The position numbers and the translations under genes were made by a program. Source: Escherichia phage MIZ6. Taken from it: a stretch of DNA of 64,000 bases. Shown in pieces: positions 30,066-52,740 of this stretch. The notes beneath the pieces were generated by a model, which made no database searches, was not told the origin of the DNA, and saw only the letters and a program-made list of their open reading frames with translations. The number at the start of each line of letters is the position of its first letter. Position 1 is the stretch's first letter. The stretch lies in the sequence record OR192075.1. One strand, written 5' to 3'.

Positions 30066-30584
30066 TTAGTTATTTTTTAATTGCTCATCTTGTAATAGGG
30101 CAATAACATGCTGTCGATGTTCTTCCGATTGAGGCACACCGAAAAAGTTTGTTTTGTAGAAATACTCTAATCGGTCTTCTCGTGTGCTCTCTTCCATCAT
30201 GATCGCGGGTAGTCCGAGATTTCGGAAACGTCGCTTTTCTGCTGGCGTAAAATCACTGTAATACAACATAGAATCATCATTACCAGCAATGCTAAACTCA
30301 TCATTCATAAAGGAGAATATTGCGTTTAAACGCTGTTTACCGTCCACGATTTCGATCTCATAGCGAGAGCCATCATCAATCTTAGCCATTGCGATAGCAC
30401 CAACCGGAAAATCATTAATCAGGTTTTCGATAAACATACGTTTGTTTTCGGTGTCCCATACCAAAGGACGCTGATAATCTGGGTTCATGTTGATATAGCC
30501 ATCTTCTAACCACGCCTCATAAACAGAGATGACAAAGTTTTTAGTATTGGTATAGTAACGGCGTTTAGGCGTTAAACGGTTCAT
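30066..30584 (-). CDS. DUF262 (ParB/Srx-like, GmrS N-domain-like) protein
   Basis: 172 aa from ATG 30584 (SD AGGAG upstream); motifs DYQRP and VDGKQR typical of DUF262. Confidence 0.55.
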   Translation of the reverse strand: MNRLTPKRRYYTNTKNFVISVYEAWLEDGYINMNPDYQRPLVWDTENKRMFIENLINDFPVGAIAMAKIDDGSRYEIEIVDGKQRLNAIFSFMNDEFSIAGNDDSMLYYSDFTPAEKRRFRNLGLPAIMMEESTREDRLEYFYKTNFFGVPQSEEHRQHVIALLQDEQLKNN

Positions 30585-30585
30585 G

Positions 30586-30918
30586 TTATAGTCTCCTGAA
30601 TGGATCATCACGTAAATCAATATCTTTTAAGAACTCATCCCATGAATGGCGGATATTGTTCTTAATTCTCCAGATAAGCGCAGGGATTGAACGCTCTCCC
30701 ATCTGGAAGTAGGGATCATATGATCCGTATGCCCAATATGCTACTACAATTCCACAATCAGCGCAATAGTATTCTATTTCACTTGCTGGCGACCAAATTC
30801 CATCAATATGATCGGTGATCCTGCTTTCGATGTTATGGCTATGGCAATCAGGGCAACGGATGCAATGACCTTGTTTATCGTAATTTGACGTTAGAGAATA
30901 CTTAAACAATCTCATCAT
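30586..30918 (-). CDS. Zn-ribbon protein, possible degenerate HNH-like His-Me finger
   Basis: 110 aa; CIRCPDCHSH ... DHID ... CADCG; stop abuts downstream ATG. Confidence 0.45.
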   Translation of the reverse strand: MMRLFKYSLTSNYDKQGHCIRCPDCHSHNIESRITDHIDGIWSPASEIEYYCADCGIVVAYWAYGSYDPYFQMGERSIPALIWRIKNNIRHSWDEFLKDIDLRDDPFRRL

Positions 30919-31631
30919 AGATCCTTATTGGCTTCAAATACTGCCTTTGCGAATCCTCGCGGGGTAAGTGACCTGATAGTCTTTGTTCTGGTTCCTTTCC
31001 CGCCTAGCTTAGAATGCTGTTTACTGTACCCTTTATTAATCTGCAACGGTTTCTTTTCTGGCATTATAAAGCCTTGTCCGGTCCATAAGCAAGTCTTTTT
31101 CGGGTACATATCACGGGCGGCAATATACTCAGGAAACGTAGGATGTTTATCATCTTCCGGCAAATAACCGCCATATTCCCACGGATGGAACATGTAATCA
31201 GGCTTACGCCACATACTAGAGATAACGCTTACAGGATTCTCTATCATGTAGGGAACTCCTATCCATTCACCCAAATAAGCGGTTATTTTAGCTGCCCGTA
31301 CATCATGAACTTGAATCAATGGTCCTTGTTCTCGTTTCTTTCGTTCAAAGTGCGCAGCGCCACTAACAGCTAAATTGGTGCACGGTGGGAATGCAAATAT
31401 AATATCCGGTTTCCCCCATTCAAGGTCCATTGCTCTTTCCAGCCAGTTCAAATCAATCCAGGTGTTTACATAGGTAATGTTTGGATGTTCAAATCTGGTA
31501 TTATACTTTTTGTATGTACCGTGGTCGGCGTCATCCGCATTAAAGCAGACTACCTTATGACCTGCTTTAGCCCATTCTAGCCCCATTATCCCCGATCCGT
31601 CAAAGTTGCAGAATATTAATTTTTGTTTCAT
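30915..31631 (-). CDS. Minimal C5-cytosine methyltransferase-fold protein
   Basis: 238 aa; FDGSG (motif I-like), FPPCT (motif IV PC-like), ENP (motif VI-like) at DNMT-like spacing; too short for a full TRD. Confidence 0.45.
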   Translation of the reverse strand: MKQKLIFCNFDGSGIMGLEWAKAGHKVVCFNADDADHGTYKKYNTRFEHPNITYVNTWIDLNWLERAMDLEWGKPDIIFAFPPCTNLAVSGAAHFERKKREQGPLIQVHDVRAAKITAYLGEWIGVPYMIENPVSVISSMWRKPDYMFHPWEYGGYLPEDDKHPTFPEYIAARDMYPKKTCLWTGQGFIMPEKKPLQINKGYSKQHSKLGGKGTRTKTIRSLTPRGFAKAVFEANKDL

Positions 31632-42158: not shown

Positions 42159-42362
42159 TTAACCGTATACGCGAAAGTATTCTACTGATCCGTCGCTATA
42201 CTGTTTTACATTGAATGTATTCACACCATGATTATTTCTCATGATGACATATACACTGCGACGTTCATCGCTAAACGGCATAACTGGCGCTGGTTCAATA
42301 TCAACACTAAAACCACGTTTAGCAAGTGCTTCGCCTAATTGCTTGAGTTTATCGGTAAACAT
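42159..42362 (-). CDS. Hypothetical small protein (67 aa)
   Basis: ATG overlaps pseT stop (TAATG). Confidence 0.45.
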   Translation of the reverse strand: MFTDKLKQLGEALAKRGFSVDIEPAPVMPFSDERRSVYVIMRNNHGVNTFNVKQYSDGSVEYFRVYG

Positions 42363-43240
42363 TAAAAGTCTCCGTAGTTAACCTGAAAACATTCTACACC
42401 AATTGAGCGGTACATGTCAACCACTTGATCACGGTCATCTACTGCCAACACAACATGATAACGCGGTGCAATTTCAGAGAAGAAAATCTCTTTCTTCACT
42501 TCATGATCAGGACGACGATCATTAGTTTCACGTTGAAAATGATCGCTAGGTTCAATACCCTGTTCACGCAGCCATTGCAGAGTATCTTCTTCGCAAACAT
42601 CCTCACGCCCTGAGCATGTAATGATACGATAACCATTATCACGATACAGTTTAAGCATTTCGATCACTTGCGGACGCGGTTTATCTTCTTTGACCTTTGT
42701 CCAGTCAAACGGATGACGACCGCCCTTATCCGCTAATGTTCCATCAATATCAAAGATCACTGCCTTCGGCAGCATGGTATTCGGTTTGTATACTTCTTGA
42801 CCCATATATTCCTGCATCAGATAAAATTGGTTGCGCAAATTAGAAAGTGGAATTGCTTTCTCGCCGCGATAGAAATTACGTTTCTTTAGTGTCTCAAATG
42901 ATTCATTGAACACTTGTTCAGTATACACCGCGTTAAATTCTTTTGCAAGTTCTTTGTAGAATACACGATGTTTTTCTTTCAGGTTGGTATCGGAGATAAT
43001 GATACTCAATCCGCGTGATAGAGTCTCACGAGCAATCATTCTCTGAATAGACTCTACCAGCTTTTCTTTTTCCTTAGTATACTTGTATTTCAAATGTGAG
43101 TCAACACCAAACAACATAAGACGAAGATCATCACGATTCACATTACGATAATTACTAAACCGTTTACACGTTTCCATAGCCCATGTAGTTTTACCGGACC
43201 CAGAACAACCAACGGTTAAAATCACTTCACATTTCGGCAT
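42362..43240 (-). CDS. pseT: Polynucleotide kinase / 3'-phosphatase
   Basis: From ATG 43240; Walker A GCSGSGKTT and HAD phosphatase motif VIFDIDGTL. Confidence 0.9.
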   Translation of the reverse strand: MPKCEVILTVGCSGSGKTTWAMETCKRFSNYRNVNRDDLRLMLFGVDSHLKYKYTKEKEKLVESIQRMIARETLSRGLSIIISDTNLKEKHRVFYKELAKEFNAVYTEQVFNESFETLKKRNFYRGEKAIPLSNLRNQFYLMQEYMGQEVYKPNTMLPKAVIFDIDGTLADKGGRHPFDWTKVKEDKPRPQVIEMLKLYRDNGYRIITCSGREDVCEEDTLQWLREQGIEPSDHFQRETNDRRPDHEVKKEIFFSEIAPRYHVVLAVDDRDQVVDMYRSIGVECFQVNYGDF

Positions 43241-43692
43241 TATTTCTCCTTCGGTTTGCACCGTTCCTCATTAAGTTCTTTTCGATAATAACACATGATC
43301 AACTTACTTTCAAGTGTATATCTCTTAATATCCGCAAGCCAGACTCTGAATTTTTGGGAGTCCTCCCACGACATAGAAACTCTAGGTTTACCGTCTATTG
43401 TATCCACTTTCAGGTCAATGTCAACTTTTTCTATTGGTGCTGGTAGTTGAGGATGTAATTTCGGTTCCTGTGAATAATGGTCCATTGTACACGAAGAAAG
43501 AGCAAATACAATAGGTACAACGAAGACATGGATTATTGCGGTCTGAAAATTCTTATGTGCTTTCTTAAACATCCAGTGTATCACGAAAATTGAAAACACC
43601 ATCAGGATAATAATGCTTGCACATATCCCCAGATAATCAACCAGATTAAAATTGCTTATCTGCTCTTGCGTAGGCAATATTTCTATGCTCAT
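43240..43692 (-). CDS. Putative o-spanin-like lipoprotein (start uncertain)
   Basis: Lipobox-like FALSSC after hydrophobic segment; position equivalent to T4 pseT.2. Confidence 0.4.
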   Translation of the reverse strand: MSIEILPTQEQISNFNLVDYLGICASIIILMVFSIFVIHWMFKKAHKNFQTAIIHVFVVPIVFALSSCTMDHYSQEPKLHPQLPAPIEKVDIDLKVDTIDGKPRVSMSWEDSQKFRVWLADIKRYTLESKLIMCYYRKELNEERCKPKEK

Positions 43693-44012
43693 TTAGTAGC
43701 CTCCTTTAATTCTTCGGTAAACTCCTTAAATGAATCATTAAGCTGTTTCTCTACCAACTTGGGTTTTTGTGCTACTACATAGCCTCGTGTAGCGTCTTTC
43801 ATTGCTTTGTTTTGTTCTTCTGCAAACTTAGTTCTTATTCCGTACATATCCTTTTGTAGTGAGTCTACGACCTTCATCTTTTCATCTGTCTTTTTCTTAT
43901 ACTCTGTAAATTCCTGATTCAGTCGATCTACCTCCTTTTTATTTTCCCACCACATATTGCCACCTACCCCCAGCAACACAGATATGATAACAATGTATAT
44001 CAGCTTTGACAT
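43689..44012 (-). CDS. Putative i-spanin-like protein (N-terminal TM + coiled coil)
   Basis: From ATG 44012 (SD GGGGG); TM helix then charged helical region; position equivalent to T4 pseT.3. Confidence 0.45.
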   Translation of the reverse strand: MSKLIYIVIISVLLGVGGNMWWENKKEVDRLNQEFTEYKKKTDEKMKVVDSLQKDMYGIRTKFAEEQNKAMKDATRGYVVAQKPKLVEKQLNDSFKEFTEELKEATK

Positions 44013-44026
44013 ATTACCCCCAACGA

Positions 44027-44050
44027 CAAAAGGCGGGGAACTAGCCCCGC
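44027..44050 (-). terminator. Rho-independent terminator after rnlA
   Basis: GCGGGG-AACTAG-CCCCGC with A-run on plus strand. Confidence 0.55.
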
Positions 44051-44056
44051 TTATTA

Positions 44057-45226
44057 TTACCAATCAATCTTATCAGCCGGAATCAGTTTCTTATAATTCC
44101 GTAGATAGTAAGTTTTCATTGAATCCAGAATACGGTCATAATCAAGACCATCAAATGCAATCATCAGACACATGAAAATATATGCTTGTGCATCACCATG
44201 TTTACGTGATTCGATAGTCGCATTGGATGCATATGTCTTTCTGTCTTCTCCCGCGTGTGCGTTATAAAATTCTGTTGCTGTCGTGAAGGCATTGCGAAGA
44301 ATAGACCTGAATGCCTCCTCGAATAGCTCGATTCGTTCCAGTGCTTCCGGTTCGCCTTCATATGCAGCACGCAAATCATCGGTTTCGCTTTCTACGACAT
44401 AGTAGATCAGATTATTAGGAAACATCGATGTGTTTTTAATGTTATGCACACCAATATACCATTCACTCTTCACTTTGAACATTTGACCGTCTTTAGTGCG
44501 TGCAACAATTCCTTCGATACCTTCTGCGGTCCGAACTTCATCAAGAATATTGCTAAAACGCGCTGAATCAACCTGTAACGCATTTACCAGATGAGGACGT
44601 AGGATTGCGTCAGCAAATAGCATTTGATGCGGTACGTACTCTCCTGTGACGTTATGGCGTACATTCAGAAGTGTTAGCGACGGTTCAGAATATTCTACAA
44701 CAATTCGGTTGCTGGGTGCTGTATATTCAAAGTTGAAAGTATAATCAGACCCAATATCAGCAATCTTAGCGCGTAGATCCGCATACTTCTCTGAATACAG
44801 AAGACCGTTTGCTCTCTCTGCCTGGCTTGAGTACAAGGCCGCTTTAGACTTCAACTGAACATAGCCGTTATCAATGTAGGTGCTTACTAGACTACCGTCC
44901 ATTTTGTCCATGACCATTTCCACATCTTCCGGCTTAAAGCGAGCGCGATCATTCTCGCCTAAATTAAAAAACTTCTCCATAGGACGAGATGCAATGCGGA
45001 CCGGACGACCTTTATCGTCAATTTCAAACATGATCCCGCGACACTCTAACGCATCTGGTTTATTCCACATTTCCGGTTTGCTCAAGTACAGATAACTAAA
45101 AATGCGCATACGGGTTTGCATCGCCGTAATTTCATCTTTGTAATAGAACGTATCAGATCCGTCACATAGTGCCATCAGATTTTTGAACAATGCTAAAACT
45201 TTTTTGTTGTTTTCTTTTGTTGACAT
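44057..45226 (-). CDS. rnlA: RNA ligase 1
   Basis: PDALECRGIMFE and RIASRPMEKFFNL blocks match T4 Rnl1. Confidence 0.9.
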   Translation of the reverse strand: MSTKENNKKVLALFKNLMALCDGSDTFYYKDEITAMQTRMRIFSYLYLSKPEMWNKPDALECRGIMFEIDDKGRPVRIASRPMEKFFNLGENDRARFKPEDVEMVMDKMDGSLVSTYIDNGYVQLKSKAALYSSQAERANGLLYSEKYADLRAKIADIGSDYTFNFEYTAPSNRIVVEYSEPSLTLLNVRHNVTGEYVPHQMLFADAILRPHLVNALQVDSARFSNILDEVRTAEGIEGIVARTKDGQMFKVKSEWYIGVHNIKNTSMFPNNLIYYVVESETDDLRAAYEGEPEALERIELFEEAFRSILRNAFTTATEFYNAHAGEDRKTYASNATIESRKHGDAQAYIFMCLMIAFDGLDYDRILDSMKTYYLRNYKKLIPADKIDW

Positions 45227-45623
45227 AATTTGTGTTCCATTCTGGTTTAAATTTGGTGATCAAAACAGGTTCTTCGATATCGGCAGTGCTTATAATATCC
45301 TTACCCGTTGGATTCTCGATGTACAACTCAAAGCACTGTCGGTAATAGAATGTTACTGTCTTACCTTCCTCTAGCGCCTTATGAATATTCTTACTCTTGC
45401 GAGTATCCGCTGTTGGTGTTTGTCTGTTAATGCTAGTCCGGTAATAATTGATCCGCTTTCTGAGATTGACAGTCTGACCAATGTATACCAGTTCATCATC
45501 AACAACAATAGCGTAAAGAACATTTAAACGGTTCTTCTGAGGCGGCAGAATCACATCACCATCTTTACACTCTAAACATGAATATTTAACGAATCCATAG
45601 TTTTCTATTAGCTCATTAATCAT
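45162..45623 (-). CDS. denA: Endonuclease II (GIY-YIG)
   Basis: YAIVVDDELVYIGQTVNLRKRINYYRT matches T4 EndoII GIY-YIG core. Confidence 0.8.
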   Translation of the reverse strand: MINELIENYGFVKYSCLECKDGDVILPPQKNRLNVLYAIVVDDELVYIGQTVNLRKRINYYRTSINRQTPTADTRKSKNIHKALEEGKTVTFYYRQCFELYIENPTGKDIISTADIEEPVLITKFKPEWNTNYVNKRKQQKSFSIVQKSDGTM

Positions 45624-46967: not shown

Positions 46968-47444
46968 TTAATCATGACCGTGATTTGCAATATCCGCTCG
47001 CGTCTTATCTTTGTGATTTCCTACGTCAAAGACACGATAACCATTTTCACGCAAAACTTTAATCACTTCTGGGTTATCCTCAAAGACTCCGACAACTTCA
47101 TCTTTATCAAAGGATTTAATTACCTCTAATTTGATGTGATAGTCTTTACGGGAATCGGTACGGCCTCTCATAAAGATTTTATCAAAACACACCCCGTTAG
47201 AAATTAACCAATCAATTGTTTCCATGTAAGCATGTGAACTTCGTCCGGTGAGGATGTAAATCAAATGCCCGTTGTCGGAAAGAGCATTAATAACACGAAT
47301 TACATCGTAAATGGGGGAATCTCCCCCACATGCCTTGTTATATTCGATCCATGACTCGACTTTATCAAGATTTTCGGTTGGCATCTTTGCTAGTCGATGC
47401 GTTGGATCTGTGATCGTAAAATCTAAATCGACAAAATATATCAT
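46968..47444 (-). CDS. HAD-like phosphatase/nucleotidase
   Basis: FVDLDFTI (DxDxT-like motif I), ILTGR, C-terminal FEDNP. Confidence 0.45.
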   Translation of the reverse strand: MIYFVDLDFTITDPTHRLAKMPTENLDKVESWIEYNKACGGDSPIYDVIRVINALSDNGHLIYILTGRSSHAYMETIDWLISNGVCFDKIFMRGRTDSRKDYHIKLEVIKSFDKDEVVGVFEDNPEVIKVLRENGYRVFDVGNHKDKTRADIANHGHD

Positions 47445-51507: not shown

Positions 51508-52740
51508 TTATACTGCCATTTGAGCGGTGATCGCTGGATGGCTTTGATAGTTGTGAATTTTAAAGTCTTTCGGAGTCTTTGTCAATACCTCATCTAAAGA
51601 TTTAAATTCCGGCAACTCAATTGTTGGTTTATCAAACGGAACACGGCTTAACTGTTCCATAACTTGATCAAAGTGGTTTTTGTAAATGTGAGTATCTCCA
51701 CCAGAGAAAATCAGTTCTCCTACCTCAAGATCACACATTTTCGCTATGATGTGAGTTAACAGCGCATAGCTGGCAACATTAAAGGGCAAGCCCAAAAAGC
51801 TGTCTACGCTTCGCTGAAACCACATACAAGACAGTTTACCTTCATTGACGTAGAATTGCACGAAAGGATGACATACACCCAATACAGCATTATGTGTTCC
51901 TTGTACGTTCCATGAGTCAATGATGATACGTCGATCCGTTGGATTGTTTTTAATTTGTTCAATCACGTTTTGTAACTGGTCTTCCCAAATCTTCGGGCGA
52001 TAGACATATTCTTCATCGTCTTTAGTGCTCGATGTGTCTACGTCCATACTAGCAAAGATCGTGGTATCTGGTGCTAAAATATCCCCACCCAGATAATCAC
52101 TATCAAGTAGATAACCGAAATAACCATCATCTACCCATTCCTGGAATCCCCACAAGCAATATGCATCATTAACAAAATTAGATTGAGTCTTCCAGTGATC
52201 TGCTACTAAGAATTGATTATATTCAGAATCAAACTCTTCATAACGCATACCACGCCAGATAGCACATAAACGGTCTTCTGTGTCGTTGGTTGGCGTAAAG
52301 TCTTCTACCCACGGGTGTTTAAATGTATGTGTATATTTGCTCTTAACGCGCTTAATTTTGATTTCACCGTGTGGATGAATCGGTTTGCGTCGCCATGCCA
52401 TACCATACATATTGCCGACATTATAACCATTGAATCGCAAAGGATTCTTTTCTTTCATATCAAGACAGTTGCCGCGCCAAATGTCGAAGGCTTCTTCGTC
52501 AAACTTTCCGCGTGTAATTTCCTGTAAGCGACGGCGGTCAAGTGATCCCTCCATAAACCATAGCAATTCGCCAATTACAGAGGCTGTAGCCATCTTTTTA
52601 GTGGTCAGTAACGGAAACCCCTTGCTTAAGTCAATTCGCATCTCTGCGCCGAATTTAGAGAGCGTACCTACCCCCGTTCGGTCTTCACGAGGCCAACCGT
52701 TATCAAGAACATCACGCAATAGTTTCAAATATTCTTTCAT
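51508..52740 (-). CDS. td: Thymidylate synthase with ~135-aa in-frame insertion
   Basis: NPTDRRIIIDSWN, VCHPFVQFYV, GGDTHIYKNH (Asn retained); 410 aa versus ~265-290 typical. Confidence 0.85.
   Translation of the reverse strand: MKEYLKLLRDVLDNGWPREDRTGVGTLSKFGAEMRIDLSKGFPLLTTKKMATASVIGELLWFMEGSLDRRRLQEITRGKFDEEAFDIWRGNCLDMKEKNPLRFNGYNVGNMYGMAWRRKPIHPHGEIKIKRVKSKYTHTFKHPWVEDFTPTNDTEDRLCAIWRGMRYEEFDSEYNQFLVADHWKTQSNFVNDAYCLWGFQEWVDDGYFGYLLDSDYLGGDILAPDTTIFASMDVDTSSTKDDEEYVYRPKIWEDQLQNVIEQIKNNPTDRRIIIDSWNVQGTHNAVLGVCHPFVQFYVNEGKLSCMWFQRSVDSFLGLPFNVASYALLTHIIAKMCDLEVGELIFSGGDTHIYKNHFDQVMEQLSRVPFDKPTIELPEFKSLDEVLTKTPKDFKIHNYQSHPAITAQMAV

Follow-up and report, generated by a model that had tools for sequence, protein, structure and literature searches.

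In phage T4, alc lies between rnlA and pseT.3 in a block with the order denA-rnlA-alc-pseT.3-pseT.2-pseT.1-pseT. The locus considered here has a spanin-like gene pair next to rnlA and no gene of the size of alc, and the question it raises is whether this absence is a local event or the mark of a phage that does not rely on hmC-based shutoff of host transcription, as a first-pass annotation of the DNA had suggested. The window, a stretch of 64,000 nucleotides, corresponds to bases 1–64000 of the complete public genome of MIZ2 (Krischvirus, RB49-like; 163,666 bp) with a 100% match, and is 98.3% identical to RB49 in a DNA comparison; the whole-genome searches reported below were run on the 163,666-bp MIZ2 genome. 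The best explanation, and a very probable one, is that the locus is the form which the T4 denA-rnlA-[alc]-pseT.3-pseT.2-pseT block takes in RB49-type phages (Krischvirus); it covers both the spanin pair and the genus-wide lack of alc and of the hmC genes.

The genes of the locus lie on the minus strand. A denA (endonuclease II) homologue (45162..45623; PHROG 1111, E=2e-52), whose product is 49% identical to T4 DenA (E=1e-41), is upstream of rnlA like in T4. The rnlA gene (RNA ligase 1/tail-fibre attachment; 44057..45226; PHROG 562, E=2e-124; 43% product identity to T4 RnlA, E=5e-91) is in turn upstream of the spanin pair, and pseT (polynucleotide kinase/phosphatase; 42362..43240; PHROG 505, E=8.5e-115; 44% product identity to T4 PseT) is directly downstream of the o-spanin gene, the last base of the o-spanin stop codon being shared with the pseT ATG. 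The two spanin ORFs at 43240..43692 and 43689..44012, which match PHROG 739/812 and T4 PseT.3/PseT.2, sit between rnlA and pseT, and their assignment to the T4 pseT.3/pseT.2 position in the first-pass annotation was correct, as was its placing of T4 alc between rnlA and pseT.3. No pseT.1 is present between the o-spanin gene and pseT, and a T4 PseT.1 query gave no tblastn match in the MIZ2 genome. The alc-less order is common to 58/58 Krischvirus records in single uninterrupted alignments and recurs in the metagenomic relatives L009, L011, L014 and L015; a search for related loci with the o-spanin returned only two IMG/VR loci, both near-identical. The T4-type late promoter TATAAATA has no exact occurrence on either strand between 42000 and 46200. 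Annotations place the start of rnlA at 45175 in MIZ2 and give the 389-aa form in RB49.

Only 44 nt lie between the rnlA stop codon (44057) and the i-spanin ATG (44012), so there is no room for an alc-sized gene (504 nt) at this junction. The sole feature of the gap, where T4 carries alc, is an intrinsic-terminator-like hairpin detected in a terminator scan (44024..44050, minus strand), which consists of GCGGGG-CTAGTT-CCCCGC (44050–44033) followed by CTTTTGT and folds at −12.2 kcal/mol (z=−1.84). Its stem is conserved, with differing loops, in RB49, L009 and L011/L012. A GC-rich stem-loop and T-run located directly after the rnlA stop codon have the features of a Rho-independent terminator, and we regard the element as a putative terminator. 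The earlier description of a terminator hairpin as all that separates rnlA from the i-spanin gene holds for this 44-nt interval and its conserved GC hairpin.

The first-pass annotation had also proposed a search of the full genome for alc, gene 42 and the α-gt and β-gt genes; when this was carried out, no homologue was found anywhere in the MIZ2 genome. In tblastn searches of the whole genome with T4 Alc, gp42, α-gt, β-gt, DenB, Arn and Ndd, no homologue was detected: the best Alc alignment had E=0.26, the best values for α-gt (1.4), β-gt (0.57), DenB (0.20) and Arn (0.006) were not significant, and the gp42 query gave only a weak paralogous match to td (E=0.007). A profile HMM of Alc likewise found nothing in 1600 stop-to-stop ORFs (best E=0.21 versus 1e-91 for the T4 control). 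The canonical gene 42/β-gt slot, from gene 43 to uvsX, contains one hypothetical ORF of 63 aa and the α-gt slot (47 to 55) two small ORFs only. In T4, gp56 and DenA act against cytosine DNA as part of the system that excludes C-DNA. A gp56 (dCTPase/dUTPase) homologue is retained (51% identity, E=2.5e-53), as is DenA, and the presence of both counts against the reading of MIZ2 as a phage with ordinary cytosine DNA. What MIZ2 shares with T4 Alc (PF17527) and the hmC network is limited to the flanking genes and homologues of gp56, DenA, Dam and Cd. Homologues of gp56 and DenA are known outside hmC phages too (PMC2993671).

Alc terminates transcription on cytosine-containing DNA, and a phage with ordinary cytosine DNA therefore cannot keep alc; it follows that the absence is expected, genus-wide and already published, with no local deletion. 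In Petrov 2010 (Table 4), alc and denB are distributed like gene 42, with no RB49-type phage among the listed carriers, and a 2025 survey scored Krischvirus as being without hmC, denB, ndd and alc. LC-MS of Krischvirus TB34 found canonical cytosine, and genomes without the gene 42/56/gt/arn/alc/denB network were found to be susceptible to type II restriction (PMC2993671). The suggestion that the missing alc hints at a phage without hmC-based shutoff is supported by the genome-wide absence of hmC genes and by this literature, and it is not new: RB49-type phages are already known to lack alc together with the hmC genes, and their spanin pair is known as well. The result rediscovers the textbook difference between T-even and 'pseudo-T-even' RB49 phages, in which there is no Alc, DenB or Arn because there is no hmC. 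We infer that the host must be taken over by other means, for example the annotated Alt/Mod-type ADP-ribosyltransferases and Srd.

We turn to the proteins that occupy the locus. The i-spanin (43689..44012, minus strand; 107 aa) matches PHROG 739 'Rz-like spanin' (E=6.6e-27) and T4 PseT.3 (E=8e-10) and contains no Cys. It had been described as a TM plus coiled-coil protein. The TM portion of this description stands, with one hydrophobic N-terminal segment at approximately residues 4–20 (hydropathy windows cover 1–21 only) that is conserved in all relatives and T4 in a full-length alignment; the segment is inside an AF2 helix that runs continuously from residue 2 to 106 (mean pLDDT 79). The helix agrees with the description as well; that it forms a coiled coil is conjectural, the score in a crude heptad-periodicity test being no better than that of shuffles (reached by 1187 of 2000). 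The GenBank start in both MIZ2 and RB49 is 43955, which gives an 88-aa product lacking the TM segment, whereas the 107-aa form with the segment is kept in all relatives. ATG 44012, the start used in the first-pass annotation, is the better predicted start, and a useful by-product is that the RefSeq record of RB49 and those derived from it, like the MIZ2 annotation, make the i-spanin 19 codons too short. In domain searches, local Pfam had no spanin model and gave only sub-threshold noise (Terpene_synth, DUF2569), and NCBIfam gave noise only; PF26831 (Phage_T4_Spanin) is found precomputed on the relatives' proteins.

The o-spanin ORF (43240..43692, minus strand) encodes a 150-aa precursor that matches PHROG 812 over residues 53–150 (E=2.7e-32) and is 48% identical to T4 PseT.2 (E=3e-19). 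Its ATG overlaps the i-spanin stop codon in a 4-nt ATGA, likewise in relatives, so that the order is i-spanin then o-spanin in a separated architecture, and a Shine-Dalgarno sequence read from the DNA, AAGGAGG (43700..43706, minus strand), stands 7 nt before the ATG at 43692. A lipoprotein signal peptide at residues 46–68 (43489..43557, minus strand) has a KKAHK n-region, a hydrophobic core and the lipobox LSSC (residues 65–68; Cys68 codon 43491–43489). Leu65 and Cys68 are invariant in the o-spanin family alignment, and the +2 residue, Thr69, is not an inner-membrane retention residue. The predicted mature protein, Cys68–Lys150 (83 aa; 43240..43491, minus strand), comprises a linker, a beta hairpin and a C-terminal helix in the AF2 model; C134 and C145 in this helix correspond to C87 and C98 of T4 PseT.2, which are essential (PMC6139136). 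The label 'lipobox protein' in the first-pass annotation is right, but the lipobox lies far from the N-terminus: an extension of 45 aa that includes an additional predicted TM helix precedes the signal. An ordinary short signal would place the lipobox Cys within ~25–30 residues of the start; here it is residue 68, which makes the signal atypical.

The extension (residues 1–45; 43558..43692, minus strand) was delineated by alignments and consists of an acidic tail and an extra predicted TM helix, with an AF2 helix at residues 17–44. The tail motif LPxx..FNLxD/E..LGxG is conserved. Across codons 1–45, comparison with L014 and L015 gave pN/pS of ~0.26–0.40 and, where dS is unsaturated, dN/dS of ~0.2, on a background of high synonymous divergence, and these ratios point to purifying selection on the extension. 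Among 50,697 phage records searched by tblastn, its carriers are the 58 Krischvirus records only. Within the o-spanin family, 1 of ~106 representatives has it; the Cys is at or before residue 30 in 84 of the ~106, and a genuine lipobox Cys beyond residue 40 occurs only in the Krischvirus cluster (a Cys at position 41 in P0089 was discounted, this being a 5′-truncated fragment). An HMM search of 1.84 billion representatives and tblastn against the 50,697 phage records recovered the extension in the Krischvirus clade only, and there always fused. On this ground we rejected its origin as a small membrane gene that exists elsewhere, either free-standing or joined to another gene. We also rejected a dual start at Met1/Met41 (holin/antiholin-like) as a general mechanism, Met41 being neither conserved nor preceded by an SD.

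The empty junction and the long precursor could each be read as an accident. For the junction, this would be a recent deletion of alc in the isolate or its lineage, with the hairpin as the scar. Alc homologues are found in 1137 other phage records, usually adjoining the i-spanin gene, and it is exactly at the rnlA/i-spanin junction that T4 and these records carry alc; yet the junction is identical in all 58 Krischvirus genomes, relatives whose i-spanin is only 38–74% and o-spanin 53–82% identical share both the alc-less junction and the conserved hairpin, and the hmC genes are absent as a complete set too, which together leave a recent deletion next to no probability. For the precursor, the accident would be one of annotation: the first 40 codons of ORF 43240–43692 would not be protein and the o-spanin would start at Met41 (ATG 43572) with a 28-aa signal. 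Residues Met41–Cys68 (MFKKAHKNFQTAIIHVFVVPIVFALSSC) would indeed make a textbook lipoprotein signal, and the alignments to PHROG 812 and T4 PseT.2 begin only at about residue 53. Against this, it is ATG 43692 that has the strong SD AAGGAGG and the ATGA overlap whereas Met41 has no SD; P0007 and P0008, two relatives whose ORFs retain the extension, have Ile in place of Met41; and the frame is open across codons 1–45 with the low pN/pS and dN/dS and the conserved tail motif described above. A start at Met41 is on these grounds improbable, and we retain the 150-aa precursor.

A further alternative concerns the DNA itself. Krischvirus phages, possibly including MIZ2, might modify cytosine along a pathway unrelated to that of gp42 and the T4 glucosyltransferases. 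It would then be wrong to read the lack of alc as a lack of modification-based discrimination between self and non-self, and a non-homologous analogue of Alc could exist. An AEM 2026 paper reports 5-hmdC and α-gentiobiosyl-hmdC in DNA of phage SAP, and cleavage of this DNA by BrxU, although neither an hmC synthase nor a glucosyltransferase is encoded in the SAP genome; the SAP locus is 98.3% identical to that of MIZ2. MIZ2 also encodes a predicted divergent C5-MTase-like ORF (30915–31631), and such an enzyme is a conceivable entry point to cytosine hypermodification. The first-pass annotation had called this a C5-MTase-fold gene. We find the motifs FDGSG (I, FxGxG), FPPC (IV, PC) and ENP (VI, ENV) and a match to PHROG 757 'DNA methyltransferase' (E=9e-84), but the match to PF00145 (15.2 bits, E=0.014) is below the gathering cut-off of 22, and support for a C5-MTase fold is weak; sequence searches gave no PDB or NCBIfam match. 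If the new route were real, this would be an alc-less locus in a phage that separates its own DNA from that of the host by a novel means. Several observations make it very unlikely. TB34, the Krischvirus with canonical cytosine, is 99.96% identical to SAP, and the SNP analysis made by the authors of that paper yielded no lead; the modification profile of SAP equals that of seven Tequatrovirus phages in the same collection, which suggests a mixed or swapped sample; no pathway homologue was found by tblastn or the Alc HMM; and network-less genomes are restriction-sensitive (PMC2993671). A possibly functional extra helix on the o-spanin is better supported than this route. That the clade-specific TM helix before the o-spanin lipobox serves a function is, by our estimate, an evenly balanced matter; a functional leader could be a released 67-aa two-helix membrane peptide or a gate on lipoprotein maturation. 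In a non-exhaustive literature search we found no account of the Krischvirus o-spanin extension, or of such a leader for any spanin, and the unusual two-helix leader offers lysis specialists a cheap test case.

By homology and anatomy, the 107-aa and 150-aa proteins are a predicted two-component spanin of the T4 type with separated genes (PseT.3/PseT.2; PHROG 739/812; PF26831). Homology, anatomy and conserved residues are our own evidence, and the lysis mechanism we infer from T4 and lambda. The N-terminal TM helix of the i-spanin would hold it in the inner membrane, with the long helical domain extending into the periplasm. The o-spanin precursor, assuming normal processing, would receive its lipid at Cys68 and be cut by signal peptidase II, and Thr at +2 would direct it to the outer membrane, after which the two proteins would bind each other through their C-terminal parts and form a complex across the periplasm. 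Once a T-holin and endolysin had cleared the peptidoglycan, the complexes would collapse and the inner and outer membranes fuse, a step that would depend on the two C-terminal o-spanin cysteines like in T4. A holin, an endolysin and a lysis-inhibition gene are annotated elsewhere in the MIZ2 genome.

The closest comparison is RB49 (NC_005066; also Phi1 and JSE), which has the same locus: DNA identity over 3 kb is 98.3%, the genes follow in the same order, the pseT.2 product likewise has 150 aa, and the differences amount to a handful of substitutions such as G24C in the MIZ2 extension. Kongari et al. 2018 (PMC6139136) had already placed RB49, Phi1 and JSE in the i-spanin and o-spanin families of T4; according to the same paper, lambda Rz/Rz1 is complemented by T4 PseT.3/PseT.2. 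MIZ2 resembles T4 in having separated spanin genes with a small stop/start overlap just upstream of pseT, an i-spanin without Cys, two C-terminal o-spanin Cys 11 residues apart and a mature o-spanin of 83 aa; identity to the T4 proteins is 31–34% for the i-spanin and 48% for the o-spanin. T4 PseT.3 has 117 aa, and the first helix of the MIZ2 i-spanin is 10 residues shorter than its counterpart. T4 PseT.2 is a 99-aa precursor (83 aa mature) with a 17-aa signal and its lipobox at Cys17, in contrast to Cys68 behind an extra TM helix in MIZ2, and T4 has alc upstream and pseT.1 downstream of its spanin genes where MIZ2 has neither. With lambda Rz/Rz1 the pair shares the two-component logic of an inner-membrane type II protein and an outer-membrane lipoprotein, but the sequences are not similar, one lambda gene lies inside the other, Rz1 is a proline-rich protein without fixed structure, and the two systems differ in their disulfide requirements. 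Krischvirus phages serve in therapy cocktails, and a link has been drawn between the absence of alc, denB and ndd in them and increased generalized transduction (PMC12115623).

A 3-kb locus query matched Escherichia phage MIZ2 (OR167178.1) at 100% and aligned at 95–99%, without interruption, to each of 57 other Krischvirus (RB49-like, 'pseudo-T-even') genomes; whole-genome searches were run on the MIZ2 record (163,666 bp), whose bases 1–64000 are identical to the window. On the minus strand, the locus comprises denA (45162–45623), rnlA (44057–45226), a 107-aa i-spanin ORF (43689–44012), a 150-aa o-spanin ORF (43240–43692) whose start overlaps the i-spanin stop (ATGA), and pseT (42362–43240). 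The T4 record reads denA, rnlA, alc, pseT.3, pseT.2, pseT.1, pseT, and the first-pass annotation had thus correctly placed T4 alc between pseT.3 and rnlA. It had also described a hairpin and no alc-sized gene between the spanin pair and rnlA, as we find: the gap is 44 nt, too small for an alc-sized gene (167 codons), and includes GCGGGG-CTAGTT-CCCCGC followed by CTTTTGT, which is detected by a terminator scan. The hairpin folds at −12.2 kcal/mol (z = −1.84), and its stem recurs in RB49 and three metagenomic relatives with different loops. Based on the scan, the folding and the shared stem, this is a conserved terminator-like or RNA-stabilising hairpin. Two near-consensus sigma-70 promoter matches (11/12 each) lie within coding sequence: TTGACA-16-TACAAT in the o-spanin gene, pointing at pseT (43397–43424, −), and TTGACA-18-TAGAAT at the pseT 3′ end (42391–42420, −).

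The absence of alc extends to the whole genome. With T4 proteins as tblastn queries, PseT, RnlA, DenA, gp56, Dam and Cd were found in MIZ2, while Alc, alpha-gt, beta-gt, DenB, Arn, Ndd, Imm, MotA, AsiA and PseT.1 gave no match and gp42 gave only a weak paralogous match to td, as expected. An Alc profile HMM built from T4 Alc and 19 homologues (identity down to 48%) reached a best E of 0.21 among all 1600 stop-to-stop MIZ2 ORFs, compared with 1e-91 for the T4 control. The canonical gene 42/beta-gt position holds just one small hypothetical ORF and the alpha-gt position just two small ORFs. Another 1137 phage records contain Alc homologues, typically adjoining the i-spanin gene, and the alc-less order is also found in relatives whose o-spanins are just 53–82% identical. 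Petrov et al. 2010 (PMC2993671) gave alc and denB 'the same distribution as gene 42', and the RB49 type is missing from that list; gene 56 and denA are kept more widely. In a 2025 survey, hmC, denB, ndd and alc were all scored as absent from Krischvirus. Since Alc causes transcription to terminate on DNA containing cytosine, and T4 strains that are viable with cytosine DNA bear alc mutations, a phage with cytosine DNA is expected to lack alc. The earlier suggestion that this phage may not use hmC-based shutoff is therefore supported. It is not new, because the literature already states the absence of alc and hmC; both this state and the spanin pair are known for RB49-like phages.

By LC-MS, the cytosine of Krischvirus TB34 (OX001802.1) is canonical, but Krischvirus SAP (OZ034687.1), 99.96% identical to TB34, was reported to carry hmC and gentiobiosyl-hmC, which its authors describe as unexplained; known pathway genes are in neither genome (PMC13390438). 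Seven Tequatrovirus phages belonging to the same collection as SAP have an identical modification profile (PMC13390438), and the SAP report is the single dissonant datum against the cytosine-DNA reading. The first-pass annotation had also cited a C5-MTase-fold gene, together with the missing alc, as a hint that the phage may not rely on hmC-based shutoff. The 238-aa ORF in question (30915–31631, −) has FDGSG, FPPC and ENP motifs resembling C5-MTase motifs I, IV and VI and strongly matches PHROG 757 'DNA methyltransferase', but its PF00145 score (15.2 bits) falls below the cut-off of 22, and PDB and NCBIfam searches gave no match. Its presence is compatible with cytosine DNA, though on its own it is weak evidence. 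Its MIZ2 annotation (30915–31586) is 15 codons short, losing FDGSG, and its neighbours (30066–30584 and 30586–30918) belong to PHROGs of unknown function. Three DNA methyltransferases are annotated in MIZ2: this one, a Dam homologue (118094–118906) and one at 153144–153983. A 170-kb uncultured relative with an 82% identical o-spanin encodes a bona fide PF00145 C5 DNA methylase near nrdB (L014:1-742), a place where MIZ2 has none.

The pair itself is a known spanin, given its PHROG and T4 homology, its conserved anatomy and the listing of RB49, Phi1 and JSE within the T4 i-spanin and o-spanin families by Kongari et al. 2018 (PMC6139136), who also showed that T4 PseT.3/PseT.2 complement lambda Rz/Rz1. 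By homology, the two proteins would form a complex that bridges the periplasm and, once murein is degraded, fuses the inner membrane with the outer one; elsewhere, the MIZ2 annotation lists holin, endolysin and rI-type genes. The i-spanin matches PHROG 739 'Rz-like spanin' (E = 6.6e-27) and T4 PseT.3 (E = 8e-10), aligning end to end with the latter, including the N-terminal hydrophobic segment and a C-terminal VVAxKPxLVE...SF motif, and has no cysteines. An AF2 model consisting of one long helix (residues 2–106, pLDDT 79) supports a helical protein. Of the proposed TM plus coiled-coil description, the hydrophobic segment and helix stand, but the coiled coil is inferred from the family, a crude heptad test being no better than shuffles. 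In the MIZ2 and RefSeq RB49 annotations an internal ATG (43955) is taken as the i-spanin start, and the resulting 88-aa product lacks the membrane anchor (43956–44012, −); all homologues, including T4 PseT.3, favour the 107-aa form starting at 44012, as first proposed. This mis-annotated start and the extended o-spanin leader are minor but concrete by-products of the analysis.

The lipobox protein in the pseT.2 position was likewise correctly recognised: it has an LSSC lipobox (Cys68, Thr at +2) and matches PHROG 812 (E = 2.7e-32) and T4 PseT.2 (E = 3e-19, 48% identity). The mature part is 83 aa, the same length as T4 PseT.2, and its C134 and C145, 11 residues apart, correspond to PseT.2 C87 and C98, both essential in T4 (PMC6139136). 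AF2 predicts a linker, beta hairpin and helix, broadly consistent with the published description of PseT.2 secondary structure (PMC6139136).

The precursor is unusual in that about 45 extra residues precede a lipoprotein signal of normal appearance (n-region KKAHK, hydrophobic core, LSSC; 43489–43692, −, including the signal). Within the extension, an acidic tail bearing the conserved motif LPxx..FNLxD/E..LGxG is followed by a second hydrophobic helix, predicted as an extra TM; AF2 places helices at 17–44 and 47–67. Several observations are evidence for its translation: ATG 43692, which overlaps the i-spanin stop, has a strong AAGGAGG 7 nt ahead of it; Met41 has no preceding Shine-Dalgarno sequence and is replaced by Ile in two relatives whose ORFs retain the extension; and pN/pS over codons 1–45 is ~0.26–0.40 (dN/dS ~0.2 where dS is unsaturated), with high synonymous divergence. 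The extension evolves faster than the mature domain but is under purifying selection. It is also specific to Krischvirus and close uncultured relatives. Among 50,697 phage records, tblastn located it in the 58 Krischvirus records and in no others; when 1.84 billion representatives were searched by HMM, this cluster alone matched profile positions 1–50 or had a genuine lipobox Cys beyond residue 40; the Cys lies at residue 30 or earlier in 84 of ~106 o-spanin family representatives, and the o-spanin of a sister lineage (L009) is of the ordinary kind, at 98 aa. The positive-inside rule would put the acidic tail in the periplasm and the KKAHK loop in the cytoplasm, with Cys68 correctly positioned for Lgt/LspA. 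Cleavage would free a 67-aa two-helix peptide. Our best guess is that the extension acts as a leader, either modulating maturation or remaining as a small membrane peptide. The extension appears undescribed: in a literature check that was not exhaustive, we did not see it mentioned in the spanin survey (Kongari et al. 2018, PMC6139136). At codon 24 (43621–43623, −), MIZ2 has Cys in the extra TM helix (GIGAS to GICAS), as does MIZ3 at least across the first 57 residues; RB49 and other relatives have Gly.

Two further genes in the window deserve mention. A second, stand-alone HAD-phosphatase paralogue of the PseT C-terminal domain (46968–47444, −; PHROG 415, E = 3e-51), annotated 'polynucleotide kinase', adjoins nrdB. 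The 410-aa thymidylate synthase (51508–52740, −) matches Pfam in two stretches, a split that points to an insertion of ~130 aa (~residues 120–250) at the position of the TS small domain.
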